This document shows positions 1-64,000 of a stretch of 64,000 nt of DNA, one piece after another. Below the pieces are notes generated by a model that did no database searches, was not told where the DNA came from, and worked only from the letters and a program-made list of their open reading frames with translations. How positions within the stretch are numbered: the stretch's first letter is position 1; each line of letters opens with the position of its first letter. The position numbers and the translations under genes were made by a program. The stretch is from Candidatus Poribacteria bacterium (GTDB lineage: Bacteria > Poribacteria > WGA-4E > PCPOR2b). The stretch lies in assembly GCA_022822785.1 (NCBI GenBank), contig JAJEAL010000080.1, forward strand, positions 448 through 64,447, written 5' to 3'.

Positions 1-1
1 C

Positions 2-304
2 AATGTCCGTCAACTTGAAAATTACCTGCACAGAATCTTTGTGCTGTCGGAAAATGAGACAATTGACCTTGAGGATCTTCCACCCGAAATTTCGGATAGC
101 TCTTTGCCACCGGGCGATTTTCCTGTGGAAATTCCAGCGGATGGGGTTGCGCTCGAAGAGATTGTGAAGGAATATATTCGGGTGGCATTGACACAGACCG
201 GTGGCAATCAAACCAAAGCCGCCGAGCTTTTGGGAATCTCGCGCCGCAGACTCCAAAATCGAATGCAGAACTACGGATTTAATAGCAGGGATTTCAAGGA
301 TTAG
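2..304 (+). CDS. sigma-54-dependent transcriptional activator, C-terminal part (5-prime truncated by the window edge)
   Basis: The frame is open from the window start and reads NVRQLENYLHRIFVL (end of the sigma54-interaction AAA+ domain). It then carries a C-terminal Fis-type HTH (TQTGGNQTKAAELLGISRRRLQNRM). Confidence 0.75.
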   Translation, partial: NVRQLENYLHRIFVLSENETIDLEDLPPEISDSSLPPGDFPVEIPADGVALEEIVKEYIRVALTQTGGNQTKAAELLGISRRRLQNRMQNYGFNSRDFKD

Positions 305-606
305 AATCGAGTAGAGGTTCTATCATGGATACTTGAATAATCTTATCATACCCGTTAAGCGGCGTCGGTTCACATAACCGATACACAGCCCTGATTAGTT
401 GCCGATTGGTATCGTGTATCGAATACCTTTCCTTGTACGGTAACCACCTTCCGCTGGAATAGTATCCTGCCTAACTCCCATAGGTTACTACGAAAGGCGA
501 CCACGCCCAAACAAATGTCAGGCTGTGGAATAGCCGTTTCGCCACGCTTCTCCCTTTAGGTTTTCTGCTGATAGGGTTAGTCAATGTCAGATGATTGGCT
601 AACTAA

Positions 607-2474: not shown

Positions 2475-2485
2475 AGGGATAGCCA

Positions 2486-3496: not shown

Positions 3497-3503
3497 CGGT
3501 GCC

Positions 3504-5256: not shown

Positions 5257-5472
5257 AGATAAATAGACGCTTTCGCTCCCCATGTTTGGTAGGCGTTGTT
5301 TTCAACTGCGCCGGTGCAGAGCGTTCAATTAATTCTAAACTTTACTGTAAAAGAGGTCCCCAGTCAATTGGCTCAGCGATTTGTCAAGATTTGGAGCGCG
5401 GTAGCACTTGAAAAGTCGTATGAAGAATTACAATCAACCGTTTAACCGCTAATGGAAAGGAGTCACGATACG

Positions 5473-14748: not shown

Positions 14749-15651
14749 CTACCTCACACGGTCGGGAAATCGTAGAAACCGCTTTGCATTCTCACCCATG
14801 ATGTCATTGTACTCATCGTCGCGTAAATCTGGTAGTAGCTCCTTGAGGATACCGGTGAGTTTGCCGTAACCGGGGTCTTCCAAAATCCACGGAAAATCAG
14901 TCGCCCACATCAGACGCTTAGCCCCATAGTGATCAAGTATCCGCTGATGCCATCGGGCGAGATCTCGGTAGGGGTATTCTTCATTGCTGAAGGCATATTG
15001 ACCTGATATATGCATCATCACGTTTTCAAAACAGTTGAGACGATGAGTCGTGTGAAAAGCCGGATTATACTCCGCTGCTTCAATCCGTGGGCGTCCTTTT
15101 GCATCCCAAGAAAACTTCCCTTTGCCGGGGCAGATACCGAGATGGTTCAAAACGACCCGGACTTGAGGAAAGGCCTCCATCAGATAGGGAAGTAGATGTG
15201 CATCGACCGCGCGAGGATATAGCCAGAGTACATAGTCTTCCGCTGCGGCATGTTCCCAAACAGGGTAGGCCTTGATTTCTTTAACGTTGATTCGATTAAA
15301 CGGATCTCTTGGACCCCCAATTGACGAAAGCCGAAAACCGATAATCCCAGTCCCGTCTGTTAGCCTGTCCATGTGATCCGCCGGCTCGGAAAGATCGGGC
15401 GGTATAAGTCCAATCCCTAGGAAGCGGTCAGGATACGTTTTCAAACAGTGTAACAGGTAGGCGTGATGTTCGATACCGGTGCCGCCGGTCTGCACGAGCA
15501 TCGCTTGATCAATGCCGTTGGCTTCCATTTCGTTTAGTAGTTTTTCGGCGGTTTCTTCCCGATCAGGGGGACAGACCGGGGTCGGTTCTCTCGGAAATTC
15601 AGCGGAAATCTTGGCGAAGACGTGGAGATGGGAATCTATTCGAGTCATCAT
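14749..15651 (-). CDS. amidohydrolase-2 family (PF04909-like) metal-dependent TIM-barrel hydrolase
   Basis: IDSHLHVF near the N-terminus ... VVLNHLG ... MWATDFPW. The 4-bp ATGA overlap with the upstream PhyH gene suggests translational coupling. Confidence 0.7.
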   Translation of the reverse strand: MMTRIDSHLHVFAKISAEFPREPTPVCPPDREETAEKLLNEMEANGIDQAMLVQTGGTGIEHHAYLLHCLKTYPDRFLGIGLIPPDLSEPADHMDRLTDGTGIIGFRLSSIGGPRDPFNRINVKEIKAYPVWEHAAAEDYVLWLYPRAVDAHLLPYLMEAFPQVRVVLNHLGICPGKGKFSWDAKGRPRIEAAEYNPAFHTTHRLNCFENVMMHISGQYAFSNEEYPYRDLARWHQRILDHYGAKRLMWATDFPWILEDPGYGKLTGILKELLPDLRDDEYNDIMGENAKRFLRFPDRVR

Positions 15652-16364
15652 GCCTCCAAACTAAAAAGCCGGCGCCGTTCCGGCGTCGTGCAGAGGTGAG
15701 CAATAGAGGCAAACCGTTTTGGATCCACGCGATCCGGCGTCCGTTTCTCGTAAATCAAGATGAGTGATTTTCGTGGCGTATCCGTATGGTTGTTCATCGC
15801 GGTATGCCAGCCGTAGGAGTTGAACATGATAGCAGTACCGGCTTCTCCTGCAAATCGTTTGTGACCGGGCATCGCTTCTAGCTGATGCGCTCTAGAGTAA
15901 GGTCCCGCATCAGGTTTGTGGCTCCCGGGTACAAACGCAAAATCGCCTGCTCCTAACTCGACATCGTTCACATAAACTTGGACTTTGATATGCAGCGGAT
16001 TGCTGTGCGGCACATCGGGATGCCAACCGGAATAGCAGACAGGTCCCGGCGGAACAGTGCGTACCTGCGGTCCCAGCAGAATCAGGTCGTCGTCCGTAAA
16101 TGCCATCAGACTGCCGTAATAGCTGGGATGATCAATCATATCCACAAAGATTTCATCTTTTGCAAAGGGATCGGGGATGTCGTAAAACGACGCAGCCATT
16201 TCCCCTGCTTCCACGCGGTCTAACCATGCGGGCTTACACTCCTCAGCCCAATAATCGAAGGCATCTTGGAGCCGTTTCAACTCATTGCCTTGAATCGCGT
16301 TTTCAAAGACAAGGTAACCTTTTTCTTCCCATTGGGCCGTTTGGGCTGCGGTGGGTCTAATCAT
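15648..16364 (-). CDS. phytanoyl-CoA dioxygenase (PhyH) family Fe(II)/2OG oxygenase
   Basis: WEEKGYLVFENAI ... GWHPD ... FVPGSHKP ... GWHTAMNNHTDTPR. 238 aa. Confidence 0.75.
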   Translation of the reverse strand: MIRPTAAQTAQWEEKGYLVFENAIQGNELKRLQDAFDYWAEECKPAWLDRVEAGEMAASFYDIPDPFAKDEIFVDMIDHPSYYGSLMAFTDDDLILLGPQVRTVPPGPVCYSGWHPDVPHSNPLHIKVQVYVNDVELGAGDFAFVPGSHKPDAGPYSRAHQLEAMPGHKRFAGEAGTAIMFNSYGWHTAMNNHTDTPRKSLILIYEKRTPDRVDPKRFASIAHLCTTPERRRLFSLEA

Positions 16365-25018: not shown

Positions 25019-25795
25019 CTACTTCATCGTCGCTGTGCACCTCTCTTTGGGTTTAGGGTAGGTTTCGAGGAAACCGTGTGGGATGCGTAGGAGATACTTC
25101 AGCCAACTTCCCTCCGGTGCATCTTCAAATAAACGCTGGTAAAGTGCATCGCCTCCAAAGGAATTTGCGATCACCCCAGGGCAGTAAGTAAAGATGATTG
25201 TCCGACGCACTTTATCGGTGGTATTCAAGGAGGCATGACGCATATCATGGGTGAACAGCAGGACAGATCCCGCTTTCATCGGGATTTCAACATACATATC
25301 CTTCAACACGTCCTCGGATGGCGACGGGTAATTTGCTTTGTGGCTCCCCGGAATGACCTGTAACCCACCCTCACCAGGGTGGATGTCGCGCATGGCATAA
25401 AACACTTGGAAAAGATTGTGATGGATACGCCCATTAAAGTGATAGAAATTGTGCGTTACCGATGGGGTGTGGTTGGAGTGAGCGACTGTCCTGCCCCCAT
25501 TCCACTTAAACGTCACCCATGTTGACTTGAGTCTGGGACGGTCCACCATCTCATCAATATACGGAAGCACCTTGGGATTCACAACGAGGTCTAATAAGGA
25601 CGGCTCCTGATTCAGAATATCATCGTATCTTACTTCAGGATTCGCTGATTCGGGCAAGGCGCGAAAATCTTGCAGTGCTCGTTTTTCCCAAACATCCAAA
25701 CGTTCGTTCAGATATATGAGATAATCCGGCGCAATGGCATCTTCGATCAGCAGATACCCGTTCACATCGTAATGATACAGTTCTTCGGGTGTCAC
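25019..25795 (-). CDS. PhyH-family dioxygenase paralog lacking an obvious HxD/E motif
   Basis: YHYDVNGYLLIEDAI ... LQVIPGSHKAN ... LLFTHDMRHASLNTTDKVRR. The window where WHxD should lie reads AHSNHTPSVTHNFYHFNGRIHHN. Confidence 0.65.
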   Translation of the reverse strand: MTPEELYHYDVNGYLLIEDAIAPDYLIYLNERLDVWEKRALQDFRALPESANPEVRYDDILNQEPSLLDLVVNPKVLPYIDEMVDRPRLKSTWVTFKWNGGRTVAHSNHTPSVTHNFYHFNGRIHHNLFQVFYAMRDIHPGEGGLQVIPGSHKANYPSPSEDVLKDMYVEIPMKAGSVLLFTHDMRHASLNTTDKVRRTIIFTYCPGVIANSFGGDALYQRLFEDAPEGSWLKYLLRIPHGFLETYPKPKERCTATMK

Positions 25796-36433: not shown

Positions 36434-36443
36434 CAATTACATC

Positions 36444-36647: not shown

Positions 36648-36884
36648 AGAGGCGGATCTGCTTAAATATGGATTCAAGTATCGACACCGGAAATACTTAG
36701 TCCAGTTGACCCTCGGGACGAGATATAAAACACGACGATAAATCCTGACGCCGGAATCATAGTCTATCCTAGAAGGCAGCCCGATCGAAATGTTGCAACG
36801 ATTATTTTTTAGTGGCTCCAGAACAGATTTGCATCGGCCATGAGGGGGCACACATAACATACGCATCCACTGGGTCTATATGTC

Positions 36885-42538: not shown

Positions 42539-43054
42539 CTACTCACTCAATGATTTCCGCATTAACTGTCCCCGTGCAACGTAGCCTTCCCTTCCAAGTT
42601 GGACACGCTCTAAATCCGCTGGAGTTACGTCTCGTTTAACCTGCGCCGGAAGCCCCATTGCCAATGTCTCTGGTGGAATCTCCTGTCCTTCTCGCACAAC
42701 TGCACCTGCAGCGATAATTGCTCGTTCTCCAATCTTAGCGCCTGTCAGGATTGTAGCTCCCATCGAAATCATTGCACCATCGCCAACGGTGCACCCATGA
42801 ACGATTGCTCCGTGGCCGATTGTGACATCGTTTCCAATCACACAGGGAAAGCCCGGATCGAGATGCACAACTGTGCCATCTTGGATGTTCGTGCGGTCCC
42901 CAACCTCAATGTATTCCAAATCGCCGCGCAGGACACAATTAAACCAAATACTCGATTCTTCACCAACGGTAACAGCACCAATAATCATCGCACCCGGTGC
43001 GATGAAGGCGGACGGGTGAATTTGCGGTAATATATCTTTATAAGGTATCTGCAT
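42539..43054 (-). CDS. gamma-class carbonic anhydrase family hexapeptide protein (YrdA/PaaY/CaiE-like)
   Basis: IHPSAFIAPGAMIIGAVTVGEESSIWFNCVLRGD ... VIGNDVTIGHGAIVHGCTVG. The start is chosen at MQIPYKD; the ORF track runs to 43168. Confidence 0.75.
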   Translation of the reverse strand: MQIPYKDILPQIHPSAFIAPGAMIIGAVTVGEESSIWFNCVLRGDLEYIEVGDRTNIQDGTVVHLDPGFPCVIGNDVTIGHGAIVHGCTVGDGAMISMGATILTGAKIGERAIIAAGAVVREGQEIPPETLAMGLPAQVKRDVTPADLERVQLGREGYVARGQLMRKSLSE

Positions 43055-43251
43055 TGCTCCTCCAAATCTGATTGATATGCGACTGTTACTATTCTGCTTA
43101 CAAGCCGTGTTGATAGATATGAATTTTATCAGCTCCCGAACCGCCGGACAAGCAAATCTCTGAAGCAAACTTACAAATTGACAGCAGATGTTCGCCGTGC
43201 TACAATTTCAAACAAGCTATTTCCTAAACCTTCCTAAATCAGGAGAAAGAT

Positions 43252-43998
43252 ATGGAGTTAACAAATAAAGTCGCTGTAATTACCGGAGGCGCAACGGGAA
43301 TCGGGGCAGCATCGGCGATTCTCTATGCGCGTGCGGGGGCGAAGGTTGTCGTCGGTGATATAAACGTCGAAGGCGGCGAACAAACTGTGGCGACCATTCA
43401 ATCTGAAGGCGGTGTCGCCCAATTTGTCCGAACCGATGTCAATTCAGCATCCGAGGTGGCCAATCTAATACAAACGACAGATGAAGCCTTCGGTCAGCTT
43501 GATGTACTGCTAACCTCCGCAGGTATCTTGAGCGGTCCTAGCGTTCGGGTAGATGAATTTGAGCTGGCGGTGTTTGAGTCAGTTATTGACACAAACCTCA
43601 GGGGCACCTTTCTATCGGTTAAACACGCTGTGCCAATCATGCAACGAAGTGGCGGCGGCGTGATTCTATGCATCGCTTCCGGTGCCGGTGTGCGCGGCGG
43701 CAGCTCATCGGTGGCTTACGGTTCAAGCAAGGGCGGTGTCAACGGACTGGTGCTGACCATTACACCACAACTTGCACCGCTCAATATCCGTGTCCACACA
43801 ATCTGTCCCGGCAGTATCGCCACCCCGCTGAAACTCCGACAGATTGCAGAATCCGCTGAACGAGCAGGACACTCCCCGGAAGAAGCAGTGGACAATGCCC
43901 GCAGATCGTTAGGTGAGCCGGAAGGCGTTGCGCGTGTACTAACATTCCTCGCCTCTGATGATGCCTCGTATGTTCGGGGCACCATTTCCACACGGTAA
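43252..43998 (+). CDS. SDR-family short-chain dehydrogenase/reductase
   Basis: VAVITGGATGIGAA ... SGAG ... YGSSKGG. 248 aa. Confidence 0.85.
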   Translation: MELTNKVAVITGGATGIGAASAILYARAGAKVVVGDINVEGGEQTVATIQSEGGVAQFVRTDVNSASEVANLIQTTDEAFGQLDVLLTSAGILSGPSVRVDEFELAVFESVIDTNLRGTFLSVKHAVPIMQRSGGGVILCIASGAGVRGGSSSVAYGSSKGGVNGLVLTITPQLAPLNIRVHTICPGSIATPLKLRQIAESAERAGHSPEEAVDNARRSLGEPEGVARVLTFLASDDASYVRGTISTR

Positions 43999-44007
43999 AC
44001 AGTCTGT

Positions 44008-44958
44008 TTAATACCCTTTTTCCTTATCCGCTACGTTGATTAATGGCTCCTCTCTGACATAGCGGTGCAGGTTATCGACGAATAGACGCATCGTACGCGC
44101 TGCAATATGTTGAGATGATCCTGCGCTATGTGCGGTCAAGATAACATTTGGTTCTGTCCATAAGGGACTTTCTGGCGGGCATGGCTCCGTATAGGTGACA
44201 TCCAATCCCGCACCAGCGAGCTTACCACTACGGAGTGCATCGACCAAAGCGTCCTCGTCAACTACTTTGCCGCGGCTGATATTGACCAAGTGGCTCCCAT
44301 CCTGCATCGCGTTAAATTGCTCGTGCGACAGGAGTTTATGCGTCTCCGGCGTGATTGGACAGCAGACTACGACCACGTTGGATTTTGCCATAAACTCCAG
44401 CAGCCAATCTAGTTTTCCAAGTTCGGTAACACTCTCTGGCTTCTCCATTGGCTCTGGATCAACCGCAATCACATCAAACTCGAAGGCTTTCGCGCGTGTA
44501 GCAATGGCGCGACCAATGCCACCAAGCCCCAAAATACCCATCGTCATTCCCGCCAATTCGATGCAGGGGACTTTTTCCCACCGCTTGTCCTTCATAAATT
44601 CGTGCTGTGTTACGATGCGGCGGGTAAGCGAAAGCAGCAGAGCAAATGCGTGTTCTGCAATCTGTGAACCGTGCATCCGTCGGCAATTGGTCAGTATAAT
44701 ATCGCTATCTTTGAACGCAGGATACATCATCCCCTCGACACCCGCAGAAACGACCTGCACCCAACGCAAGGACTTGGCTTTGGCGAGATCTGCTTCACCG
44801 ATATGTCCGTAGATGATGTCAACATCGGCAACGTGATCGCCAAGAGCCTCGCCCTGTGGCAAAAAGCACATCTCTACTTCAGGTGGCGCCTCTTTACTTA
44901 TCGCTTCAACCTCTGGACTGTATCGTCCTGCAATCAAGGCTTTGTATTTTGCCATTGT
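44008..44958 (-). CDS. D-isomer-specific 2-hydroxyacid dehydrogenase family, NAD-binding
   Basis: GILGLGGIGRAIATRA ... VNISRG ... AGLDV ... HSAG. The start is chosen at MAKYKALIAG; the ORF track runs to 45039. Confidence 0.8.
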   Translation of the reverse strand, partial: TMAKYKALIAGRYSPEVEAISKEAPPEVEMCFLPQGEALGDHVADVDIIYGHIGEADLAKAKSLRWVQVVSAGVEGMMYPAFKDSDIILTNCRRMHGSQIAEHAFALLLSLTRRIVTQHEFMKDKRWEKVPCIELAGMTMGILGLGGIGRAIATRAKAFEFDVIAVDPEPMEKPESVTELGKLDWLLEFMAKSNVVVVCCPITPETHKLLSHEQFNAMQDGSHLVNISRGKVVDEDALVDALRSGKLAGAGLDVTYTEPCPPESPLWTEPNVILTAHSAGSSQHIAARTMRLFVDNLHRYVREEPLINVADKEKGY

Positions 44959-45169
44959 AGATCCCTTTCTGATAATTAGGATAAGCCAAGTTGATGGTAG
45001 TAAGTATATCGCTTTGAGTCCTGACTCGCGGTTCTCCATATCAAGTTTCTATAATATCATGCTATAGATAGAACCGACAATAACTGTTCATGTAATTGCA
45101 GCCAGTTTTCCGAAGGTGAAAAGTCTAATAGACTGTTCTAATCTCCGACACCCATCTGTTGCTATTGCT

Positions 45170-47122
45170 TCATACCCAAAAACCATAAGTCGACATCCCT
45201 GCTAGAATGCCGACAAGTGTCCAGAGGCTACCCACTGTGAATTCACCGAGGATAAGTCCCAAAAAAAAAGGGGCAACGCGACGATGCAGCCCGATGCCGC
45301 CGTGTCGTAACAGCAGCCACTTGATGAGCCAACTGACAAAAAGGCAACTCCATGTCACCCGCATTCCCCAACTTGTCGAAATTGCAAAACCCGCGGGATG
45401 GAAGGGCCACCACACAAATCGCATGCGAAAGAGCATTAGGAAGCTAGCAATGATAAAACCGCAGGCCATGAAACCACTTTCGGCAACTAATGTGTCTGTC
45501 GGTGTACTTAGCCAACGGTCTAGCCGTCGATACGGCTCGATGCCGAACGCACTCAACGAGGGGCTATAGGCACGAGCTTCCATACCTAGTTGGTATCCAC
45601 GGTCAATCAGTGCCCAAAAGCCGGCGAGTGAGCCGAGGAGAGCAGCGAGCATCAGCGCAAGTATAAAATGCCGCAGATTCATCCGAGTCCGCTCCGCCAT
45701 CTTGAGCCCCTCGAGCTGATGCGGCATCGGGTGGCTGCGATAAGCACGGTTAATGAACCAGAACATCGAAAACATAACCAAGTTCCCGCGTCCCAGCGTT
45801 CGTGTGCCGACGGTTCGTGTGAGAATCTCGTCGGGACCGGAATAGTGCAGGTCATGGACAGGCGTTCCCAACTCTGCTCGCATGCGGGTGATAGCAATGG
45901 AGATAGCATAATAGATGACAAAGAAACTGACAGTGATAGGCACCGTTGCGCCCCCGCGATAACAGAAACAGACAAGGAACACCATCACACCGATTAGTCC
46001 CAACACCGCTGTGCGATACCTCATCGGCTCATTCAAGTCGTCGAGATTCTCCGCTCCCCGGAACGCTTTTCTGATGACCGCTATCAAATGCCTTCGGCTT
46101 GCCCAAAGTGCAATGACAGCAAGTGCGATGTAGCCACCCGATGCTTGTTCTCTCATGTAGGGAAAGTTCGGCAGACTTTGCAAGCCCATTGCGGCACCAG
46201 CAACACGCATCAGCCGCCAGAACCAGAAGAAAAACCAGCACGAAAACGATAGGTCAAGTGGGATGAAAAATCCGAGTCCAATAGCAAATGGGTAGAATGA
46301 GAGTGGGATGCGTCCCATGGCGTTCCACGGGCTATCAGTGAAAAGCTGGAAGCTCTGAATCCGTGTCCGAAGTTCAGGGATGACGGGAAAGATGACGTGC
46401 ACCCCGTTCAGCAGTGCCAACGCTCCTGCAATAGCAAATCCCATCCACATCACCCGGTTCCGAAAGAACGCTTGCCGTTGCGTTTCCGTCATCTGGAGTG
46501 GGAGTTGGATAATCGGGTAGCTAAGTTTCTCATGCTCAATCCACCGCTTACGGACAATGACGTTGACGCAGAACATCCCGAAGACAAGTACAAAGATAAA
46601 CGTTGTCCACCAGAGGACAGGAGATGCCCAACCAATCAACTGCTCAGGGGTATAGAGGTTCACCTCTCCTTCGTAATATCCCCGTGCAACCTTGCTATTG
46701 CTGACCGTCAGCCACTCCGGGAGGTATGGCAAGAATAGTTCGCGCCATTCGTTCTCCGGTGTCGCAAAACGAAAGGCGTGCCCCAACATCGGCACGAGGA
46801 TTTCGAGCATATCGTGCCCCGTGATGCCGGACGCAATAGAGAGCATCAGGTAGATGATAATCAGCTCTCCCTGATTCAATGCAGAACGAGGTGAAAACCA
46901 CTTGACAAACTGATTGACACCGACAATCACAAAAAGGGTGAAAACAACGTTAAAAAACAGGGAGATAGTGACCGGATGACCGGAATACCGAATTACCTCC
47001 ATTTCGATGACCCAATAACAGTTGATTGGGATGAGAACGCAGGCGATGAAAAGGGATTTGACGGTAACACCTTCAACCGGCTGCTGCTCTATTTTTGAGC
47101 GGAGCGAATCTGTTGTTGCCAT
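45170..47122 (-). CDS. large polytopic membrane protein of unknown function (at least 12 predicted TM segments)
   Basis: 650 aa, rich in W/F/L hydrophobic segments throughout. I recognise no catalytic motif. It is adjacent to the PhyH-rich island. Confidence 0.6.
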   Translation of the reverse strand: MATTDSLRSKIEQQPVEGVTVKSLFIACVLIPINCYWVIEMEVIRYSGHPVTISLFFNVVFTLFVIVGVNQFVKWFSPRSALNQGELIIIYLMLSIASGITGHDMLEILVPMLGHAFRFATPENEWRELFLPYLPEWLTVSNSKVARGYYEGEVNLYTPEQLIGWASPVLWWTTFIFVLVFGMFCVNVIVRKRWIEHEKLSYPIIQLPLQMTETQRQAFFRNRVMWMGFAIAGALALLNGVHVIFPVIPELRTRIQSFQLFTDSPWNAMGRIPLSFYPFAIGLGFFIPLDLSFSCWFFFWFWRLMRVAGAAMGLQSLPNFPYMREQASGGYIALAVIALWASRRHLIAVIRKAFRGAENLDDLNEPMRYRTAVLGLIGVMVFLVCFCYRGGATVPITVSFFVIYYAISIAITRMRAELGTPVHDLHYSGPDEILTRTVGTRTLGRGNLVMFSMFWFINRAYRSHPMPHQLEGLKMAERTRMNLRHFILALMLAALLGSLAGFWALIDRGYQLGMEARAYSPSLSAFGIEPYRRLDRWLSTPTDTLVAESGFMACGFIIASFLMLFRMRFVWWPFHPAGFAISTSWGMRVTWSCLFVSWLIKWLLLRHGGIGLHRRVAPFFLGLILGEFTVGSLWTLVGILAGMSTYGFWV

Positions 47123-47194: not shown

Positions 47195-47998
47195 CTACCC
47201 TTTCGTTTCCGAAGCGGTCCAGACACCATTCGGAGCGAGTGCCAACGCCTGCTCAAGATGCACCATTCGCTCCGGTCCCGCCGTTTCTACCATTTTATCC
47301 CCATAGACCTTTCCCTTCCCAAAACCCGACACAAGATCAAGCTCCTTGTGCAGTAAGTCTATCTCATCTTCTTTGTATCGATAGCCACAGTTAATTGTGA
47401 ACATACGCCTTTGGGTCCCGCCGCCCCAAGAGCTATGCTTCAAACCTTGATTAAACACAACAAGGTCCCCTGGCTGCGATTCGAGTGCAACCGCGGGTAC
47501 TGAAGGGCCATCAAGCGCGTAAGTCTCTTCCAAGCTAGAGATGTTCTGTTGTACCGTTTCGGCGTATAGCTCCCCATATCTGTGGCTACCGGGGATAAAA
47601 CGCACTGCCCCGGTATTAGCGGTCAATGGGTCAAGATAAAACGCCATCTTATAGAAACGGATGGGACGGGGCCAACCGCCATCAGAATGCCAACCAGTAT
47701 CCCCACTGTAGAAATTGCCGTCACTCCCCAGATAGGTGTAATCTTCTCCGAGCAGGCTGGCGAAGATGCCATCAATTCGGTCATCGTCGAGAAGCGAACT
47801 GAGGTATTCGCTCTGACCGATAAACGGTACGATGTATGTGCGGTGCGTTTCGGGGTGATCTACGTTCAGGTCAACCCAGACCTGTTCAAATGCTTCAATA
47901 ATCTGATCGATGCAGTCATTGAGAAAACCGGGGAGATGGAGATAGCCGAATGTGTCCATATAACGGAGTTGCTCTGGTGTGAGTCGGAACTTTGACAT
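47195..47998 (-). CDS. PhyH-family Fe(II)/2OG dioxygenase
   Basis: FGYLHLPGFL ... GWHSDGGW ... FIPGSHRYG. The start is chosen at MSKFRLTPEQ; the ORF track runs to 48079. Confidence 0.7.
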   Translation of the reverse strand: MSKFRLTPEQLRYMDTFGYLHLPGFLNDCIDQIIEAFEQVWVDLNVDHPETHRTYIVPFIGQSEYLSSLLDDDRIDGIFASLLGEDYTYLGSDGNFYSGDTGWHSDGGWPRPIRFYKMAFYLDPLTANTGAVRFIPGSHRYGELYAETVQQNISSLEETYALDGPSVPAVALESQPGDLVVFNQGLKHSSWGGGTQRRMFTINCGYRYKEDEIDLLHKELDLVSGFGKGKVYGDKMVETAGPERMVHLEQALALAPNGVWTASETKG

Positions 47999-48038: not shown

Positions 48039-49241
48039 TTAGGCGTTATCCCAACTAACGATAAAATCTGCGACCTCAAAATCCACGGGCATGTTGTCAG
48101 AATCGTATGGCGATATGCTCCGTTGAAAACCGGGGTGGTCTTCCGTATCAGAAGTCTTCAGCTTCTTATCAAGTGCACCAAACCGATTCCACAGTCCCTC
48201 TGTTTGTTCAGGAGTGAAGCGAGTTCCGAGGTAGAGGATGTCTCGACCATTCCCCCACAGGGAATTGGGTGAGGTATCCGTGTGTTTGAGCCGATACAAC
48301 GCTCTACTCAATTTTGATAGCATGACGATGCTGACCATCCGGCCGTGTGGTGATGGGTGAAGTTGCTCTAGCCCTGCGTGAAATGCGTCAACGTCTTTGT
48401 TTACGATCGCATGAAAGATCTTTGCAACCAGATCCAGTTCTGTGAAGAAGAGTGTATCCCACGTCTCAAACTGTGTTCTTGCGGGATCTGAAAGATAGTG
48501 ATAGAACCCAGGCTCCCAGTGGCGCCAATGAACGTTGGGGAAAGAGGGGAAGCGAAAAGGACGGTAGCCGGGATGCAGTGTGCGCCGCATCTTGCTGCTG
48601 TAGTAACTTCCCCAGTGTAGCAGAAGGTGGGTGTACACGACTCCGTCGCCGGCGTTAAGTTCGACAGGCATGCCGCCGGGCAGGGGCACTGATGCGTTCT
48701 CACTCAACTGTTGGTTTTCCTCGTTGGTGTTAACGCGCCGGTGACTGCCGGGAACAATCCAAAATACACTGTCGTCGTAGAGGGCGATGTTCCATTGTAG
48801 ATAACTGGGGCCATGGTGCTGCATATTGGAAATCATGCCGCGCAGCGGGGCGGGTTCTCCGGGGCCAATATCTCGGTGCCACGTGGCTGGTCCGGTTTCC
48901 CCGGCGGTCGCGCTGCAGATACAGGCAAGATTGTGTGGAACGACATCTTCTGTATCCATTAGTTGCTGGGCAACCCCCAAGGTATTCTCGTGGAGCAGAA
49001 ACTCAATGGCGTTGGCAGACTCACGATCGCAATCTGCGGCGAATGCCAATCGTGGTTGGCCACTTGCCGCCCATTCGCCCCCCGGCGGCTGATCGGGCGT
49101 ACGCCGCTGCTCGGACAGTTCTTTTTTCCGATTGACCATGTGTTCAATGCTGTTGCGCAGGGGTTGGAGCTGGTCAGGCGGGACCACATTGTGCAAGATA
49201 TTGTAGCCCTCGTCCATAAGCTGTTGCCGGTCGACTTGCAT
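48039..49241 (-). CDS. long PhyH-like dioxygenase paralog (about 400 aa) with a C-terminal extension
   Basis: LMDEGYNILHNVV ... ATWHRDIGP ... WIVPGSHRRVNTNEENQQL ... HWGSYYSSKMRRT. Clear paralog of 56974..58212, including the C-terminal roughly 130 aa. Confidence 0.7.
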   Translation of the reverse strand: MQVDRQQLMDEGYNILHNVVPPDQLQPLRNSIEHMVNRKKELSEQRRTPDQPPGGEWAASGQPRLAFAADCDRESANAIEFLLHENTLGVAQQLMDTEDVVPHNLACICSATAGETGPATWHRDIGPGEPAPLRGMISNMQHHGPSYLQWNIALYDDSVFWIVPGSHRRVNTNEENQQLSENASVPLPGGMPVELNAGDGVVYTHLLLHWGSYYSSKMRRTLHPGYRPFRFPSFPNVHWRHWEPGFYHYLSDPARTQFETWDTLFFTELDLVAKIFHAIVNKDVDAFHAGLEQLHPSPHGRMVSIVMLSKLSRALYRLKHTDTSPNSLWGNGRDILYLGTRFTPEQTEGLWNRFGALDKKLKTSDTEDHPGFQRSISPYDSDNMPVDFEVADFIVSWDNA

Positions 49242-49445: not shown

Positions 49446-49544
49446 TGTGCATTAGGAGTGTCAAAGTAATTCTAAAATCCACCATAATAGGAGATTATAT
49501 TTATGCGGTCTACATTTGTCAACAGTCTCAGGGAGAGAAATAGG

Positions 49545-50432
49545 TTATTGGTTCAGCTGTGCTTCTGCCCACGCTTGGAGTGGAATATCAGCCGCCTCTG
49601 GTCGCCAATGTCTGGACACCGGATGTACGTGAGCGTCATCTCCTAGGTAATTGCCTTTACCTGTGCCTAATTCTCCGATCAGCTGCCGCTGAATCGGTGT
49701 GCAGCGGGCAATCAGGTCGGGGGCTTGGTGGAGATAATCGGCGGGTCGAATCCAACGATAGTGATAACCGTAATACAAACACTTCCGGGCGTGGTTTGAC
49801 AGATTTGGGGTGAGGCAGTGCCAGAGCGCAGTGCGCCAGAGCATCGCTGTGCCCGGGCGGACGTTCACCTCTACAATCCGGTCGGGATCAATCTCGTAGC
49901 CATCCTGATGTATCAGTGCCGGTGACATCTTATGGCTGCCCCGGACAACACAGATTGCGCCGCTGTTATGCTGCGTCAAATCCGTCAAATAGTAGCCAAC
50001 TTTTACCTCCACAAACGGCACCCGTCCGTTGGTAATAGGATACCCAAAATTCGGTGCGTCCGAATGCCAAGGGAAGAAACTATCCTTTGACCCTAACTTC
50101 TGATTTGCGTATTCGGGCGGACACGGTGGACGCACATCGAGGTGTGATGTGCGGATCTGGATATTGACACCGAGGACATCTACCACGAGCGGCAGCAATG
50201 TTGGGTGGTCGATGAGACGCAGCAATTCGTCATGGTGAGCGAGAGCGTTCCGAATCTGGAACGGTTCGTCCGGTCCAATCTCTTTCTCACTTCGATAGTG
50301 AGCATCTAACTCATCTACCGCTTCAATCAATGTTTCAATCTCTGTGGGACTTAGTGCATCCTCAATTAGAATATACCCATCTTCATCGAATTGCCTGCTT
50401 TGTTCTTCAGTGATAGCAATGGATTTTTCCAT
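49545..50432 (-). CDS. PhyH-family Fe(II)/2OG dioxygenase
   Basis: FDEDGYILIEDAL ... PWHSDAPN ... VVRGSHK. The start is chosen at MEKSIAIT; the ORF track runs to 50522. Confidence 0.7.
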   Translation of the reverse strand: MEKSIAITEEQSRQFDEDGYILIEDALSPTEIETLIEAVDELDAHYRSEKEIGPDEPFQIRNALAHHDELLRLIDHPTLLPLVVDVLGVNIQIRTSHLDVRPPCPPEYANQKLGSKDSFFPWHSDAPNFGYPITNGRVPFVEVKVGYYLTDLTQHNSGAICVVRGSHKMSPALIHQDGYEIDPDRIVEVNVRPGTAMLWRTALWHCLTPNLSNHARKCLYYGYHYRWIRPADYLHQAPDLIARCTPIQRQLIGELGTGKGNYLGDDAHVHPVSRHWRPEAADIPLQAWAEAQLNQ

Positions 50433-52211: not shown

Positions 52212-53003
52212 ATGATCGAAGACGAACGCTATCTATTTGACCTGACAGGCTACCTCGTAATTAAGGAGGTACTCGCCGCTGAGGAGGTTGAGCGTTGTAA
52301 TGCAGCAATCGATCGCCATTTTGATCAAGCGAAAGAGATAGACAGGTCGCTAGCGGGTAATTCAAAAACGTTGTCAGGAACTTCTCGCCGGATAGATTTA
52401 GGTGGGATGCTAGCGTGGGAACGCCCATGGTGCGAACCGTTTCGGCATTTTCTTGTCCATCCGCGAATAAAGCCCTACCTCGACGGGATATTAGGAGAAG
52501 GCTATCGACTCGATCACGGACCGGGGATGATTGCGATGGACACAGGGGCAGAAGGCGGCACATTGCACGGCGGGGGCATTGAGCGTCCTAACTTTTCGGA
52601 AGCCTATTTCTTCAAGGATGGACGTATCTACACCGGGCTCACGGTCGTCGAATATATGCTCGCGGACGAAGGCCCGGGAGATGGTGGATTAGCGGTTATT
52701 CCGGGCAGCCATAAGGCGAACCTCCCTTGTCCGCAAAGTATGAAGCTATGGGAGAAATATCAGCAGCATGTGCTTGAAATCAATGCAGAGGCCGGCGATG
52801 CCGTTATCTTCAGTGAGACCCTGACGCACGGCACTTTGCCATGGAGGGCGAAGCATCAGCGGCGTGCGTTGCTCTATAAATTTAGTCCCGGATTTCAGGC
52901 ATACAGTGCAGGAGCGCATCAAATCACCTATCCTGACTATATTGAGGATATGACGCCGGCGCAGCGTGCAGTCATGGAGGCACCGCACATCCGTCGCCGA
53001 TAG
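52212..53003 (+). CDS. PhyH-family paralog in which the expected HxD/E position reads H-G-G
   Basis: YLFDLTGYLVIKEVL ... GTLHGGGIERPNF ... LTVVEYMLADEGPGDGGLAVIPGSHKAN ... SETLTHGTLPWRAKHQRR. 263 aa. Confidence 0.65.
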   Translation: MIEDERYLFDLTGYLVIKEVLAAEEVERCNAAIDRHFDQAKEIDRSLAGNSKTLSGTSRRIDLGGMLAWERPWCEPFRHFLVHPRIKPYLDGILGEGYRLDHGPGMIAMDTGAEGGTLHGGGIERPNFSEAYFFKDGRIYTGLTVVEYMLADEGPGDGGLAVIPGSHKANLPCPQSMKLWEKYQQHVLEINAEAGDAVIFSETLTHGTLPWRAKHQRRALLYKFSPGFQAYSAGAHQITYPDYIEDMTPAQRAVMEAPHIRRR

Positions 53004-56973: not shown

Positions 56974-58212
56974 ATGACGGGAGATACGGGAATGCAATTT
57001 AATCGAGACCAATTCATGGAGGACGGGTATTTGGTATTGCGCGAGGTCATCCCACCGACTGAATTGGAAGATTTGTGCGCTGGTTACGATCGGATGGTAG
57101 ATCGACAACGTGGGATCTGGGCGTGCGAACGCAATCCAGACGATCCACCGGGCGGCGTATGGGAGACGGGTCCACAACCGCGGTTGGCGCTGCATCGGCG
57201 CCCTTTGCTAGACCTTATTGATAGGGAGACAGCGAACACAGCGGAAATCTGGCTGCACGAAAACACGCAGGGCGTTAGTACTCAGTTGATGGGAGAGCCG
57301 GATGCAGCCGTTACCGAAATGATGTTGATGTGCAGTCCGGTACGCGACCGGGGTCCTGCTGCTTGGCACCGCGACATCCATCCGATTGATACCGCCCCGC
57401 TACAGGCGTATATAGATGACATCATAGAAAACGGGCCGAGATATGTTCAGTGGAACATTCCGCTCTACGATGACAGTGTGTTGTGGGTGGTGCCCGGCAG
57501 CCACCTACGCATCAACACCGAAGAGGAGAACCGTCAGTTGTTGGCGGATCCGCACGTCCCCTTGCCCGGCGGCGTCCAAACGCATCTCAAGGGTGGTGAT
57601 GGTGTGGTCTACATCACCCCCATCCTCCATTGGGGCAGCAACTACAGCGCGAAGCTGCGGCGCACCATTCACGGCGGTTTCTGCAACTTCACGAAATATG
57701 AAGATTTGAGTTATACGAAAAATCTATCCGCTGAAGCCCAAGCCACACTGCAACGGTGGGACAAACGGAGTGAGCAGATGCAGGGTCGTACTGAGTCGGC
57801 ATTGCGAGCTGTTATTGAAAAAGATGGTTCCGCCTACCACGCTTCGCTAGACGCGATACATCCGGGCAGAGGTGAAAAGGGCAAAATGCTAACCACTATT
57901 TTTCTGTGTAAGGCGGCGTTTTTCATTAATCTCCGACGGAATCCGGGGGTTGAAGACGGTCCAGAAGACCTGCGTAAGCGCGGGACGAGCGCTCACCCAA
58001 CGACGCTGAACTGGGGACCTGAGTTCGCAGATCGTTTCACACCGCAGGAGGCAGAGACGTTATGGGACCGGTTTAAGCCGCTCGATGCCAAACTTCAAAG
58101 GGATGAGGAACATTTTTTCCCCGGCTTCCAATCGGGGCCGATGCGGTACTGTTTCAATGAAACACCCTCCGATTTCGGGGTAAAGGAATTCATCGGGATT
58201 TGGGAGAATTGA
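56974..58212 (+). CDS. long PhyH-like dioxygenase paralog (about 410 aa) with a C-terminal extension
   Basis: FMEDGYLVLREVI ... AWHRDIHP ... WVVPGSHLRINTEEENRQL ... HWGSNYSAKLRRT. Paralog of 48039..49241. Confidence 0.7.
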   Translation: MTGDTGMQFNRDQFMEDGYLVLREVIPPTELEDLCAGYDRMVDRQRGIWACERNPDDPPGGVWETGPQPRLALHRRPLLDLIDRETANTAEIWLHENTQGVSTQLMGEPDAAVTEMMLMCSPVRDRGPAAWHRDIHPIDTAPLQAYIDDIIENGPRYVQWNIPLYDDSVLWVVPGSHLRINTEEENRQLLADPHVPLPGGVQTHLKGGDGVVYITPILHWGSNYSAKLRRTIHGGFCNFTKYEDLSYTKNLSAEAQATLQRWDKRSEQMQGRTESALRAVIEKDGSAYHASLDAIHPGRGEKGKMLTTIFLCKAAFFINLRRNPGVEDGPEDLRKRGTSAHPTTLNWGPEFADRFTPQEAETLWDRFKPLDAKLQRDEEHFFPGFQSGPMRYCFNETPSDFGVKEFIGIWEN

Positions 58213-59341: not shown

Positions 59342-60118
59342 ATGCTTGATGTTGAGCTTATCGATCCCACTGAAGTTGAAAGAGCAGCGGCTATCTTCCA
59401 TCGAGATGGGTTTGTTCCCATCAGAGACGCGCTCAATCCCGAACAGCTTGCGTACGCCCAATCGGGTGCAGCCCGTGTCATTGCCCAGCAGATGAGGGAT
59501 ATTCCACTGGAGGAGGCAAACCGAGGATATGCCCGTTACTCTTTTGGTTCCCAGATCCATCACCCGGAATGGGTTCAGCTTATCGATTTACCGACGGTTT
59601 TACCGATAATAGATGCGATTTGGGGGAGTTCCGATTACATCTGTTCCGGCGGCGGTGGCGATTACTCGACGCCCGGCGCGCGGGAACAACAGCTCCACGC
59701 CGATATCAGAGATGTTTTCAACGATCCACTGAATCTAGTGACAATCCACGATGTGCCAACGCCGTATATCGTTGTGAATTTTCTTATGGTTGAATTCAAA
59801 AAGATTAACGGTGCCATTCGATTTGTGCCGGGGACCCATCGGACGCGTCAACCTGTGCCGGCGATAGACGAGGAGCCTGACCGTATGAAGGAATCGATTA
59901 TCTGTGCACCCGCCGGAACGGCGCTCATCCGGGATGTGCGTTGCTGGCACGGGGGCACCGCCAATAACTCGGCTGAGATTCGACCGATGACCAGTGTCGG
60001 TTACCTCGCGCCATGGTTTCGTTTGTCCGGTCTGGGACCATCACTTCCACGTGCGCTCTATGATACGCTGTCCGCCCGCGGTAAGGAGCTCACTCGGTTT
60101 ATCGTTCAGCCCGATTAA
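59342..60118 (+). CDS. PhyH-family Fe(II)/2OG dioxygenase
   Basis: FHRDGFVPIRDAL ... QQLHADIRD ... FVPGTHRT ... CWHGGTANNSAEIR. 258 aa. Confidence 0.7.
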   Translation: MLDVELIDPTEVERAAAIFHRDGFVPIRDALNPEQLAYAQSGAARVIAQQMRDIPLEEANRGYARYSFGSQIHHPEWVQLIDLPTVLPIIDAIWGSSDYICSGGGGDYSTPGAREQQLHADIRDVFNDPLNLVTIHDVPTPYIVVNFLMVEFKKINGAIRFVPGTHRTRQPVPAIDEEPDRMKESIICAPAGTALIRDVRCWHGGTANNSAEIRPMTSVGYLAPWFRLSGLGPSLPRALYDTLSARGKELTRFIVQPD

Positions 60119-61277: not shown

Positions 61278-63329
61278 ATGAAAAACGAAGATAAAGCGAA
61301 ACCACAACTGTTGGATGAACTAGTGGACATCCGTCAACGTATCTCGGAGTTAGAACAGGCAGGGGCACGGTATAGGGGGACCCTAGAAACTTTGGAGCAG
61401 ACAGGAAGGACCTATTACGATCTTTACGATAACGCTCCGGATATGTTCCTGTTCGTAGATGCTAGGACAGCTAAGGTTATCCGATGCAATCAGACGGTGG
61501 TCCAGGCACTGGGCTACACTAAAGAAGATATTATTGGTCAGTCTGTTTTCAGGATGTATCATCCAGATTGCATGGAGGAGGCAAATAAAGCGTTTCAAAC
61601 CTTTGTAGAAACGGGTGAAGTTCATGATGCCGAACTCGTGTTAAAGCGGAAAGATGGGAGCAAAATTGATGTGAGTTTGAACGTCTCATCGGTTCGCGAT
61701 GAAGAGGGAAATGTCCTGTACGGCAGGTCGGTGTGGCGCGATATTACTCGGCATAAGCAGGCGGAGAAGGCACTCCGGCAAAGCGAAACGCGATACCGTA
61801 CCCTTTTTGGTGAATCCAGAGATGCCATCTGTATCAACACCCGCGAGGGCAAAATCCTTGATGTTAATCAAGCAACGTTGCATCTTCTCGGTTATACCCG
61901 TGATGAATTAATCGGGATGAATGTCCGGAAATTATATGTTCGTCCTGAAGATCGAAGCTCGTTTCAGCAGGAGATTGAACGAAAGGGATCCGTTAGAGAC
62001 TATGAATTGAAATTCCGGAGGAAGGATGGGACGCGGATAGACTGTCTGCTCACCTCAACGGTGCGGCGCGCGGCTGACGGGACGGTGTTAGAGTACCAAG
62101 GTATTATCCGCGACATCACCGAACAGGTGAAGGCAGAAAGAGCGCTCCACGAGAGCGAGCAGCGATTTCGTCAGCTGGCAGCAAATCTGCGTGAGGTGTT
62201 CTGGCTGAGTTCTCTTGATGGGCGCCAAATCTATTTCATCAGTCCCGCGTATGAGGAGATTTCGGGGCGCAGCTGCGAGAGTCTAATAGCGCGTCCGGAA
62301 TCTTGGTTGGATGCTGTCCATCCCGAAGACAGGGAAGTCGTTCTCGCCAATTTGGAGAAGCAGAGCCGTGGAGAATTTGCCGAATATGAATACCGGATTA
62401 TACGCCCTGATGGGGAGGTCCGTTGGATTGAAACCCATGTCTCTCCGGTCCGCAACGAAGAAGGAGAAATTTACCGCTCCGCGGGGAGTGCGCAGGAAAT
62501 CACCAAACGCAAGCGAGCGGAGGCATTGGCGGAATCGCAGCAGCAGCAGTTAATTCAAGCGGACAAAATGGCATCGCTCGGAATTCTGGTCTCCGGGGTG
62601 GCGCATGAAATCAACAATCCGAATAACTTTATCATGCTCAACGGAGAAATTCTGTCCATGGCTTGGCAGAATATCATGCCAATCCTTCAGAAATACTACG
62701 AAGATAATGGCGATTTTCTTTTGGCCGGCATGCCGTACACCCGGGCACATGCGAAAATTGGTCAGTTGATTTCCGGTATCTCGGAAGGGGCAACCCGTAT
62801 TGGGAAAATTGTTGAGGCATTGGGCGGTTTTGCGCGTCAGGATGCGGGCGATTTGAATCAGACTGTTGATCCAAACACGGTCACCGAATCCGCGATGGTT
62901 ATTGTTAACAATTTAATCAAGAAATCGACCCATGCTGTGTCCGTTGATTTGGCGGAGAACTTACCCAAAATTCGGGGAAACCCACAGCAGCTCGAACAAG
63001 TTATCATCAATTTAATCACTAACTCCTGCCAAGCACTTCAATCGCCCCAAAAGCGCCTATTTATCTCAACATCGTATAACAATAGGTCGGACATGATTAC
63101 CATTAGGGTGCGAGATGAGGGTGAGGGGATTCCGCCTGAAAATTTGAACCACATCATTGAACCCTTTTTTACGACTAAGCGAGACACCGGCGGTACAGGT
63201 TTAGGCTTGTCAGTGTCCTATAATATCGTCAAGAATCATGGCGGTCATCTACATTTCACGTCGAGATTTGGCAAGGGCACGACTGCCACTGTTATGCTGC
63301 CCGTCTCTCGTCGGATTGTCATGGAGTAG
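61278..63329 (+). CDS. multi-PAS sensor histidine kinase (cytoplasmic)
   Basis: At least three PAS-like modules, then HisKA (ADKMASLGILVSGVAHEINNP) and HATPase_c (VRDEGEGIPPEN ... GGTGLGLS). The start is chosen at MKNEDKAKPQ; the ORF track starts at 61140. Confidence 0.8.
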   Translation: MKNEDKAKPQLLDELVDIRQRISELEQAGARYRGTLETLEQTGRTYYDLYDNAPDMFLFVDARTAKVIRCNQTVVQALGYTKEDIIGQSVFRMYHPDCMEEANKAFQTFVETGEVHDAELVLKRKDGSKIDVSLNVSSVRDEEGNVLYGRSVWRDITRHKQAEKALRQSETRYRTLFGESRDAICINTREGKILDVNQATLHLLGYTRDELIGMNVRKLYVRPEDRSSFQQEIERKGSVRDYELKFRRKDGTRIDCLLTSTVRRAADGTVLEYQGIIRDITEQVKAERALHESEQRFRQLAANLREVFWLSSLDGRQIYFISPAYEEISGRSCESLIARPESWLDAVHPEDREVVLANLEKQSRGEFAEYEYRIIRPDGEVRWIETHVSPVRNEEGEIYRSAGSAQEITKRKRAEALAESQQQQLIQADKMASLGILVSGVAHEINNPNNFIMLNGEILSMAWQNIMPILQKYYEDNGDFLLAGMPYTRAHAKIGQLISGISEGATRIGKIVEALGGFARQDAGDLNQTVDPNTVTESAMVIVNNLIKKSTHAVSVDLAENLPKIRGNPQQLEQVIINLITNSCQALQSPQKRLFISTSYNNRSDMITIRVRDEGEGIPPENLNHIIEPFFTTKRDTGGTGLGLSVSYNIVKNHGGHLHFTSRFGKGTTATVMLPVSRRIVME

Positions 63330-63436
63330 CGTTTTAGCCTTTCACCGGAAAACTAGCAGTAAGGGCATGATCCTCTGTCAGATAGCAAATCAATCACCGA
63401 ACCTCGTACTCTTACTTTTAGAATGGATCTGAGTGC

Positions 63437-64000
63437 ATGAACCCAACTACTTTTCCTGCCCTCCCTGTTTTACTAGTAGATGACGAAGCACAATTCCTCT
63501 TCAGTGCTAGTTTAAGCCTGAATTCGGAGGGCATTGATAATGTTGTAGAATGCCAAGATAGTCGTGATGTAATGTCGATTCTTTCCGAAGAAGACTTTTC
63601 CGTCGTTGTGTTGGATATGTTGATGCCGCATCTGTCAGGGTGGGAATTGCTCCCAACGATTGTGCGGGATTTCCCAGATATCCCAGTTATTATCATCACG
63701 GCGGTCAATGAGGTTAAGACAGCGGTTGACTGTATGAAGGAAGGGACTTTCGACTATTTGGTAAAACCTGTGGACAAGGTGCGTTTGGTAACGACAGTCC
63801 GGCGGGCGATAGAGGTTAGGGACTTACGCGATGAAAATACTCGACTTCGGGACTATCTGCTTTCCGACAAGCTAGAGCAGCCTGATGTGTTTTCCGAAAT
63901 TATCACCCAAAACTCTGTTATGCGATCTATTTTCCAATATATCGAAGCGATTGCCGAGAATGCGCTGCCGGTACTCATAACTGGGGAAACCGGTGTGGGT
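63437..64000 (+). CDS. sigma-54-dependent response regulator (NtrC-like: receiver plus AAA+), 3-prime truncated by the window edge
   Basis: Receiver domain LLVDDEAQF ... VVLDMLMPHLSGWELL ... KEGTFDYLVKP, then the start of the AAA+ domain with LPVLITGETGVG (Walker A). There is no stop codon before the window end. Confidence 0.8.
   Translation, partial: MNPTTFPALPVLLVDDEAQFLFSASLSLNSEGIDNVVECQDSRDVMSILSEEDFSVVVLDMLMPHLSGWELLPTIVRDFPDIPVIIITAVNEVKTAVDCMKEGTFDYLVKPVDKVRLVTTVRRAIEVRDLRDENTRLRDYLLSDKLEQPDVFSEIITQNSVMRSIFQYIEAIAENALPVLITGETGVG

Follow-up and report, generated by a model that had tools for sequence, protein, structure and literature searches.

Nine anciently diverged PhyH-family oxygenase genes in an inherited gene cluster of Candidatus Poribacteria

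A stretch of 64,000 nucleotides of Candidatus Poribacteria DNA (assembly GCA_022822785.1, contig JAJEAL010000080.1, positions 448 to 64,447; hereafter the window) harbours nine genes of the PhyH family of Fe(II)/2-oxoglutarate (2OG) oxygenases. They are named here by their first coordinate in the window: 15648, 25019, 25890, 47195, 48039, 49545, 52212, 56974, and 59342. The initial annotation had described them as an extreme local expansion of the family. We found that the nine genes are, with good support, anciently diverged paralogs in an inherited cluster and not the product of a recent local burst. The explanation that we favour as a whole, with a probability of roughly 0.6, is that the window belongs to a Poribacteria chromosome in which old PhyH paralogs are kept in a conserved cluster, and that their products would oxidise carbohydrate-like molecules.

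Pairwise identity among the nine proteins is 20-30%, apart from the two long paralogs 48039 and 56974, and many pairs are barely detectable with BLASTP. Each paralog with a match in the Protein Data Bank (PDB) resembles a different characterised branch of the family, namely PHYH/SnoN, GriE, KanJ, HygX/DhiD, and proline hydroxylase. A neighbour-joining tree of 53 proteins of the long subfamily placed 48039 and 56974 in two separate deep clades. The clade of 48039 contains Planctomycetota and has Latescibacteria as sister branch, and the clade of 56974 contains Zixibacteria, Gemmatimonadota, and Dehalococcoidia, with Handelsmanbacteria just outside.

The layout of the window between 42 and 58 kb is kept in 14 to 17 of the 17 loci from related Poribacteria metagenome-assembled genomes (MAGs), at 84-87% identity. 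On the left side, the syntenic order is ftsZ, radical SAM, hexapeptide transferase, SDR, 2-hydroxyacid dehydrogenase, PhyH (47195), long PhyH (48039), PhyH (49545), and epimerase. On the right side, it is ThuA, PhyH (52212), BNR, GFO/IDH/MocA, HAD, DUF429, and long PhyH (56974). The paralogs 47195, 48039, 49545, 52212, and 56974 have one-to-one orthologues in the related genomes; the loci compared are 21-kb pieces, and 15648, 25019, 25890, and 59342 fall beyond their flanks. Recent tandem duplication is therefore contradicted by the low identity, the different branches, the deep clades shared with other phyla, and the synteny, and the reading as a local expansion is not supported. The conservation of the layout indicates an old cluster that has been passed on vertically.

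Within the cluster, conservation is highest for a trio of genes, which encode the 2-hydroxyacid dehydrogenase, the 47195-type PhyH, and the long PhyH: at about 70% identity only this trio stays together (18-21 of 21 loci). The 47195-type PhyH adjoins the long PhyH in all 17 loci of the closer set and in 20 of the 21 more distant ones, and the 2-hydroxyacid dehydrogenase lies beside the long PhyH in 14 of 17 and 18 of 21 loci, respectively.

A scan with the alignment of the long paralogs against one genome per GTDB species returned Poribacteria MAGs for all of the best 33 loci, and the first 16 of these share 84-87% identity and belong mostly to closed chromosomes of 5-7 Mb. The 90% cluster of the 25890 protein also includes MYE87608.1 from Candidatus Poribacteria bacterium. 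These matches support well the assignment of the window to the chromosome of a Candidatus Poribacteria sponge symbiont. The source contig, ~74 kb long and assembled from metagenome data, might be chimeric or mis-assembled, or might carry open reading frames (ORFs) that merely mimic the family. Nonetheless, identical gene order was found in independent assemblies, including the closed Poribacteria chromosomes, which excludes mis-assembly. Furthermore, all nine proteins exceed the Pfam threshold with their catalytic residues kept, and GC content is even across the clusters. We consider such an artefact extremely improbable.

All nine ORFs match PF05721 with 28.7 to 104.9 bits, each above the Pfam gathering score of 22 bits. 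A six-frame scan of the window with an in-house PhyH hidden Markov model (HMM), built from the nine proteins and their relatives, recovered exactly the same nine copies and could not detect a tenth copy, fragment, or pseudogene. This is in agreement with the initial annotation, both in the number and location of the ORFs and in their identity as PhyH-family Fe(II)/2OG oxygenases. The genes form four groups, at 15.6 kb, 25-26.7 kb, 47.2-50.4 kb, and 52.2-60.1 kb, and account for 9 of ~51 genes in the window (~17%). The high density that had been noted is thus confirmed against the published 2-3.7% of genes, and it corresponds to ~5-8 times the phylum average. The binomial probability of at least 9 PhyH genes among 51 is 7e-7 to 1e-4 at a background of 2-3.7%, a background taken from published counts of single amplified genomes, our related genomes having been sampled as 21-kb pieces. 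The clustering is therefore real even on the high background of Poribacteria. It is also general around long paralogs and extends beyond this window: the 21-kb Poribacteria loci around long-paralog homologues usually hold 3-5 PhyH genes, and clustering was also found in Gemmatimonadota (3 in 15 kb), in Handelsmanbacteria (5 in 15 kb), and on a further metagenome contig (3 in 15 kb).

The abundance of PhyH genes in this phylum is already known, and the window adds no new phenomenon in this respect, since it belongs to the phylum for which PF05721 abundance was published in 2014. In that study (Kamke 2014, PLoS One 9:e87353, PMC3909097), no Pfam domain is more abundant in poribacterial genomes than PF05721, which accounts for 1.98-3.7% of genes, such as 123 of 3319 and 114 of 4820, and for at most 0.49% elsewhere. 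The study also reports that 305 poribacterial PhyH sequences fall into 193 clusters at 60% identity, that most members are without assignable function, and that PhnY/PhnZ pairs occur among them. The initial annotation had mentioned that such expansions are reported for some symbiont and marine heterotroph lineages, and the published case is the window's own phylum. The window agrees with it in phylum, family, high diversity, and mostly unassigned functions. However, the study deals with genome-wide counts and the PhnY/PhnZ case, and does not appear to describe this multi-PhyH cluster near ftsZ, the long subfamily of ~400 amino acids (aa) with its C-terminal domain, or a HygX-type variant of the iron site. 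In follow-up transcriptomics from the Kamke group PhyH genes were abundant, and the highly expressed ones carried annotations like 'mitomycin/fumonisin biosynthesis'. A search of the literature on PhyH in marine polysaccharide use and in poribacterial pangenomes revealed nothing beyond Kamke 2014, Jahn 2016, and a paper of 2025 on FJS enzymes.

The two long paralogs are 48039 (48039..49241, minus strand, 400 aa, PF05721 28.7 bits) and 56974 (56974..58212, plus strand, 412 aa, PF05721 37.5 bits), which share 39% identity over the full length (E 1e-99). In 48039 an N-terminal double-stranded beta-helix (DSBH) domain is followed by a C-terminal helical domain. The two motifs that had been quoted for the long ORFs, GTRFTPEQTEGLWNRF and ADRFTPQEAETLWDRF, are present, and the extra C-terminal domain is indeed common to both. 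Its size, given before as about 130 aa, is however ~160 aa (residues ~237-400). In 48039 the extension covers 48039..48533 on the minus strand (residues 237-400) and is predicted to consist of some eight helices followed by a beta-hairpin and one last helix; in 56974 it covers ~57712-58212. Long relatives of ~400 aa were found with 300 matches at E<=0.001, the best 120 of which all have E<=1e-95. At least 589 loci of the subfamily were found in GTDB species genomes, from at least seven phyla: Poribacteria, Planctomycetota, Latescibacterota, Gemmatimonadota, Zixibacteria, Chloroflexota, and Handelsmanbacteria. The residues W121-H122-R123-D124, H209, and R219/R220 are invariant in the alignment of 53 long-subfamily sequences, and the long enzymes therefore look catalytically competent.

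The AlphaFold 2 (AF2) model of 48039, calculated with the subfamily alignment, reached pLDDT 94.5 and pTM 0.92, and indicates that the catalytic and C-terminal domains form one rigid unit. The model has the DSBH fold of PhyH-type enzymes: Foldseek returned 275 PDB matches at E<=0.001, and the best 50 are all PhyH-type Fe/2OG oxygenases. The top matches are the orthosomycin oxygenases EvdO1 and AviO1 (4xbz, 4xaa; E 5e-11), which act on oligosaccharides, and only the first ~238 residues were aligned. These two enzymes, as well as HygX (4xc9), which is the best sequence match of 52212, differ from the window proteins in sequence, with only 16-22% identity, and they lack a counterpart of the 160-aa C-terminal domain. 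The C-terminal 164 residues of 48039 have no Pfam match. Modelled alone with AF2, the domain is predicted as a helical bundle plus a beta-hairpin (pLDDT 89), and the fold search against the PDB returned nothing significant (best E 0.89). The AlphaFold modelling proposed for the extension yielded a helical domain, with no significant fold match. An exhaustive phmmer search of 1.84 billion representative proteins placed the region in 109 clusters, and each time it formed the C-terminal end of a ~400-aa protein or belonged to a fragment or truncated gene call; a mobile, reusable domain was accordingly rejected. By its sequence distribution the extension appears to be an accessory domain specific to the subfamily and not special to this window. 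As a guess, it may shape the substrate pocket or a lid, or mediate oligomerisation.

Further copies of long PhyH genes were observed elsewhere. Three Poribacteria chromosomes (OZ244825.1/L064, OZ242036.1/L068, and OZ242315.1/L081) carry a further copy with 45-46% identity, ~61-66 kb from the 48039 orthologue; the 10 kb on either side of this copy hold no other PhyH gene. At least three long paralogs therefore exist in Poribacteria, not all of them clustered. In Latescibacterota (L044, 10001-12673; L045, 9564-12234), two long-PhyH genes stand in true direct tandem, unlike in the window.

The canonical iron-site motif H-x-D ... H ... R is present in seven of the nine paralogs, and the 2OG-binding Arg, expected ~10 residues past the distal His, in all nine. 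One of the two deviating copies, 52212 (52212..53003, plus strand, 263 aa, PF05721 53.8 bits), possesses H119-G-G121 and E202-T-L-T-H206, and its E-x3-H aligns with NEALMH of HygX. In HygX the acid of the iron site is relocated and replaced by Gly, giving H-x-G ... E-x3-H (PMC13374393). On its motif, the site of 52212 is of this rare HygX type, and the motif is kept in 18 unique orthologues; the nearest PDB sequence is likewise HygX (4xc9, E 3e-8). The other copy, 25019 (25019..25795, minus strand, 258 aa, PF05721 59.1 bits), has a non-canonical H106-S-N plus D184-x2-H187, shares 28% identity with 52212, and has DhiD (8zyb, E 9e-6) as nearest PDB relative. Since a compensating acid is present, neither 52212 nor 25019 is probably a halogenase.

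The canonical paralogs outside the long subfamily are found in different gene contexts. The 15648 gene (15648..16364, minus strand) encodes 238 aa with PF05721 at 52.4 bits and the triad H116-x-D ... H188, followed by R199. Its stop overlaps the start of an Amidohydro_2 gene (14749-15651) by 4 nt, and upstream of 15648 comes an aldo/keto reductase (16427-17200). A PDB sequence search with 15648 found no match at E<=0.01. The 25890 gene (25890..26678, minus strand, 262 aa, canonical HxD...H...R) has the highest PF05721 score of the nine, 104.9 bits. The genes for an O-methyltransferase (26727-27335), for the MR_MLE enolase-superfamily enzyme at 27364-28596, and for the PD40 beta-propeller protein at 28764-29996 belong to the same row.

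In the left cluster, 47195 (47195..47998, minus strand, PF05721 43.8 bits) lies directly downstream of the long paralog 48039, and its nearest solved relative is a proline hydroxylase. The mechanical ORF extends to 48079; the gene callers start at 47998 in the identical contig (L001) and in the orthologue of L004, and the true start is most likely the ATG at 47998, giving 267 aa. Similarly, the mechanical ORF of 49545 (49545..50432, minus strand, PF05721 76.9 bits, canonical triad) extends to 50522; the orthologue was called at 295 aa, and the ATG at 50432 is most likely the true start, also giving 295 aa. With the revised starts, both ORFs no longer overlap their neighbours. The 49545 gene is located downstream of an NAD-dependent epimerase (50455-51213), and its nearest PDB match is the leucine hydroxylase GriE (E 9e-7), followed by EctD. 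According to Pfam, the context at 42539..47122 includes a hexapeptide transferase, an SDR, a D-2-hydroxyacid dehydrogenase, and a DUF6785/DUF6784 membrane protein. The latter (45170-47122, minus strand) has at least 11 hydrophobic segments, and its gene shares a strand run with the long PhyH. Our search found this candidate transporter in only 4 of 17 syntenic loci, and it therefore appears to be inserted variably in the cluster. In the 300-bp gap upstream of 48039 we found a perfect sigma-70-like promoter match at 49494..49522 (minus strand, TTGACA-17-TATAAT, 12 of 12 consensus positions). It is only suggestive, since such matches overall were not more common than in shuffled sequence.

In the right cluster, the row on the plus strand runs ThuA, 52212 as second gene, BNR, GFO/IDH/MocA, HAD, DUF429, long PhyH, Amidohydro_2, PhyH, and BNR. 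The segment 51481..56969 (plus strand) holds the ThuA, BNR_2, GFO/IDH/MocA, HAD, and DUF429 genes assigned with Pfam. The last PhyH gene, 59342 (59342..60118, plus strand, 258 aa, PF05721 61.6 bits, H-A-D ... H ... R), is flanked by Amidohydro_2 (58268-59110) and a BNR/sialidase-like protein (60178-61227), and the kanamycin B dioxygenase KanJ (E 3e-8) is its nearest PDB match. Both Amidohydro_2 genes of the window (14749-15651, minus strand; 58268-59110, plus strand) directly adjoin a PhyH gene, and this pairing may be functional.

The search against NCBIfam could not place any of the nine proteins at an equivalog or subfamily cut-off, which bears out the earlier statement that the substrates are unassigned. 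The copies might nevertheless exert roles already known for PhyH enzymes, such as phosphonate use as by PhnY, ectoine hydroxylation as by EctD, SyrB2-like halogenation, demethylation of 2'-O-methyl nucleosides as by FJS/PHYHD1, or alpha-oxidation of branched acyl-CoAs as by PHYH. Consistent with such roles are the PhnY/PhnZ pairs reported by Kamke 2014 (PMC3909097), the similarity of 25890 to human PHYH (2a1x, E 5e-12, its best PDB match) and also to SnoN, SnoK, PHYHD1, and SyrB2, and the absence of the facial-triad Asp in two paralogs, as in halogenases. However, the scores are far under the cut-offs: 16-27 of 500 bits for PhnY-type enzymes (NF052437), 18-29 of 336.5 bits for EctD (TIGR02408), and at most 51 of 226 bits for the Fe/2OG halogenases of SyrB2 type (TIGR01762), the last reached by 25890, which has the HxD motif. 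No HD-domain phosphohydrolase, acyl-CoA ligase, or carrier protein gene was found beside any copy. The window copies thus have the superfamily fold and cofactors in common with EctD, PhnY-type, and SyrB2-type enzymes, but differ from them in score and gene context. As a halogenase, 52212 was also rejected: its Asp is missing, but a relocated Glu is present as in HygX.

For demethylation, a direct comparison was made with a Poribacteria enzyme of the PhyH family whose demonstrated activity is the demethylation of nucleosides at 2'-O-methyl ribose (NAR 2025, PMC12709175). The sequence of this demethylase, taken from the supplement of that paper, was compared with the nine paralogs and all loci. 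The FJS/PHYHD1 demethylases belong to the same Pfam family and include this Poribacteria member active on a methylated sugar, but the window has no orthologue of them: the best of the nine shares 27% identity over 146 aa (E 1e-9), which does not permit a transfer of function. Taken together, the known roles are an improbable explanation for the nine genes.

A second alternative is that the PhyH genes belong to biosynthetic clusters, in which the symbiont would make a glycoside, aminocyclitol, or other secondary metabolite that is then tailored by the oxygenases. In the PDB the nearest relatives are enzymes that tailor natural products (EvdO1, AviO1, HygX, KanJ, SnoN/K, and DhiD, from orthosomycin, kanamycin, nogalamycin, and hygromycin pathways), although the PDB is biased to such enzymes. 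The window also holds an O-methyltransferase, an epimerase, two hexapeptide acyltransferases, HAD, GFO/IDH/MocA, and radical SAM enzymes, and the 'mitomycin/fumonisin biosynthesis'-like labels of highly expressed PhyH genes point in the same direction. Nonetheless, no glycosyltransferase, aminotransferase, sugar nucleotidyltransferase, polyketide synthase/nonribosomal peptide synthetase, or other scaffold-forming gene was detected in the PhyH clusters. Orthosomycin or aminoglycoside biosynthetic genes are absent around 52212, and the window contains no orthosomycin-type genes. Families of catabolic type are present instead (BNR sialidase-like, ThuA, Amidohydro_2, and MR_MLE in the window, and GH95 fucosidases in other phyla), and more than 100 PhyH genes per genome fit poorly with the tailoring of a few metabolites. 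A biosynthetic role is therefore unlikely in our judgement.

The mechanism that we propose within the favoured explanation is that cytoplasmic oxygenases hydroxylate or demethylate imported carbohydrate-like molecules; for this part alone we would put the odds somewhat short of even. Each enzyme would use Fe(II), 2OG, and O2 to hydroxylate, demethylate, or otherwise oxidise a separate small carbohydrate-like substrate imported from the sponge matrix, with sugars, sugar acids, deoxy- or O-methyl sugars, and amino sugars as candidates. The dehydrogenases encoded alongside (GFO/IDH/MocA, 2-hydroxyacid dehydrogenase, SDR, and aldo/keto reductase) would then receive the products, as would the epimerase, the enolase-superfamily dehydratase, and the lactonase-like amidohydrolases. 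The long PhyH would work with the short PhyH directly downstream and the 2-hydroxyacid dehydrogenase, and its helical C-terminal domain would fold as one unit with the catalytic domain, probably for pocket shaping or oligomerisation. A cytoplasmic processing of imported molecules is suggested because the neighbours are sugar and sugar-acid enzymes without evident signal peptides upon inspection of their N-termini, together with a polytopic membrane protein. In other phyla, the long PhyH is found among several PhyH genes together with MR_MLE, GFO/IDH/MocA, 2-hydroxyacid dehydrogenase, epimerase, SDR, and GH95 fucosidases. The enzymes of the closest solved structures (EvdO1, AviO1, HygX, KanJ, and SnoN/SnoK) act on sugars or glycosides, and the activity of the tested Poribacteria demethylase on a methylated ribose points the same way.

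Several points weigh against the processing of carbohydrates. No substrate is assigned by NCBIfam for any of the nine, and none is orthologous to the tested Poribacteria demethylase. Sugar-acting enzymes are matched only weakly (E 1e-6 to 1e-11, 14-22% identity), and amino-acid and terpenoid oxygenases appear in the same fold list. The neighbouring families GFO/IDH/MocA, Amidohydro_2, and SDR are broad, and no glycoside hydrolase of a clear CAZy family was found in the window. The operon structure was inferred solely from spacing, strand, and consensus promoter matches, and the role given to the C-terminal domain is a guess.

In a Gemmatimonadota locus (L088, 14021-15194), the genes of a 2-hydroxyacid dehydrogenase and of a thiamine-diphosphate enzyme come after the PhyH genes. 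This order resembles the logic of alpha-oxidation, with PHYH and 2-hydroxyacyl-CoA lyase, and could hint at a hydroxylate-then-cleave pathway.

The PhyH-rich segment neighbours the dcw cell-division cluster. The DNA is otherwise that of an ordinary chromosome: housekeeping genes in the window include murD-ftsW-murG-murC-ftsQ-ftsA-ftsZ, purH, nadA, holA, and mqnC/mqnD of the futalosine pathway; tRNAs and Rfam RNA elements could not be detected in it. The dcw cluster shows two unusually long gaps without an ORF of at least 150 aa, one of 717 bp between murC and ftsQ (36168-36885, GC ~0.42, no ddl there), and one of 500 bp between ftsA and ftsZ (38967-39465). GC content is mostly even at ~0.47-0.54, with dips near 12-14, 22-24, and 36-38 kb. 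A DNA methyltransferase gene (N6_N4_Mtase, 530 aa, 22384-23976, minus strand) has a GC content of 0.40 against ~0.50 around it, lies between mqnC and a SAM_HAT gene, and may be acquired DNA. Two paralogs of the SAM hydroxide adenosyltransferase family (SAM_HAT_N/C) are present, at 5452-6372 (plus strand), with an N-terminal hydrophobic segment, and at 24147-24947 (plus strand), adjoining the PhyH pair at 25-26.7 kb. We take SAM_HAT_N/C to be the DUF62 family, which includes fluorinase and chlorinase enzymes.

PhyH is the most abundant protein family in a dominant phylum of sponge symbionts, and 12 years after this was noticed hardly any of these enzymes has a known substrate. The remaining interest of the window lies in the conserved multi-PhyH cluster, in the cross-phylum long subfamily with an unmatched C-terminal domain, and in the HygX-type variant of the iron site. 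A bolder idea, which we regard as doubtful, is that the long PhyH defines an undescribed cross-phylum subfamily whose 160-aa helical domain is a new fold or module, and that it acts with an obligate short PhyH partner and a 2-hydroxyacid dehydrogenase in a so far unrecognised pathway that oxidises a sugar derivative from the host or from algae. If this were true, multi-PhyH clusters would be a general, overlooked class of carbohydrate-processing locus. With the trio, the long subfamily, and the HygX-type copy, the window offers a compact, conserved, and experimentally tractable set of enzymes. Their substrates, if found, would account for much of poribacterial metabolism and bring new chemistry to the toolbox of Fe/2OG oxygenases.

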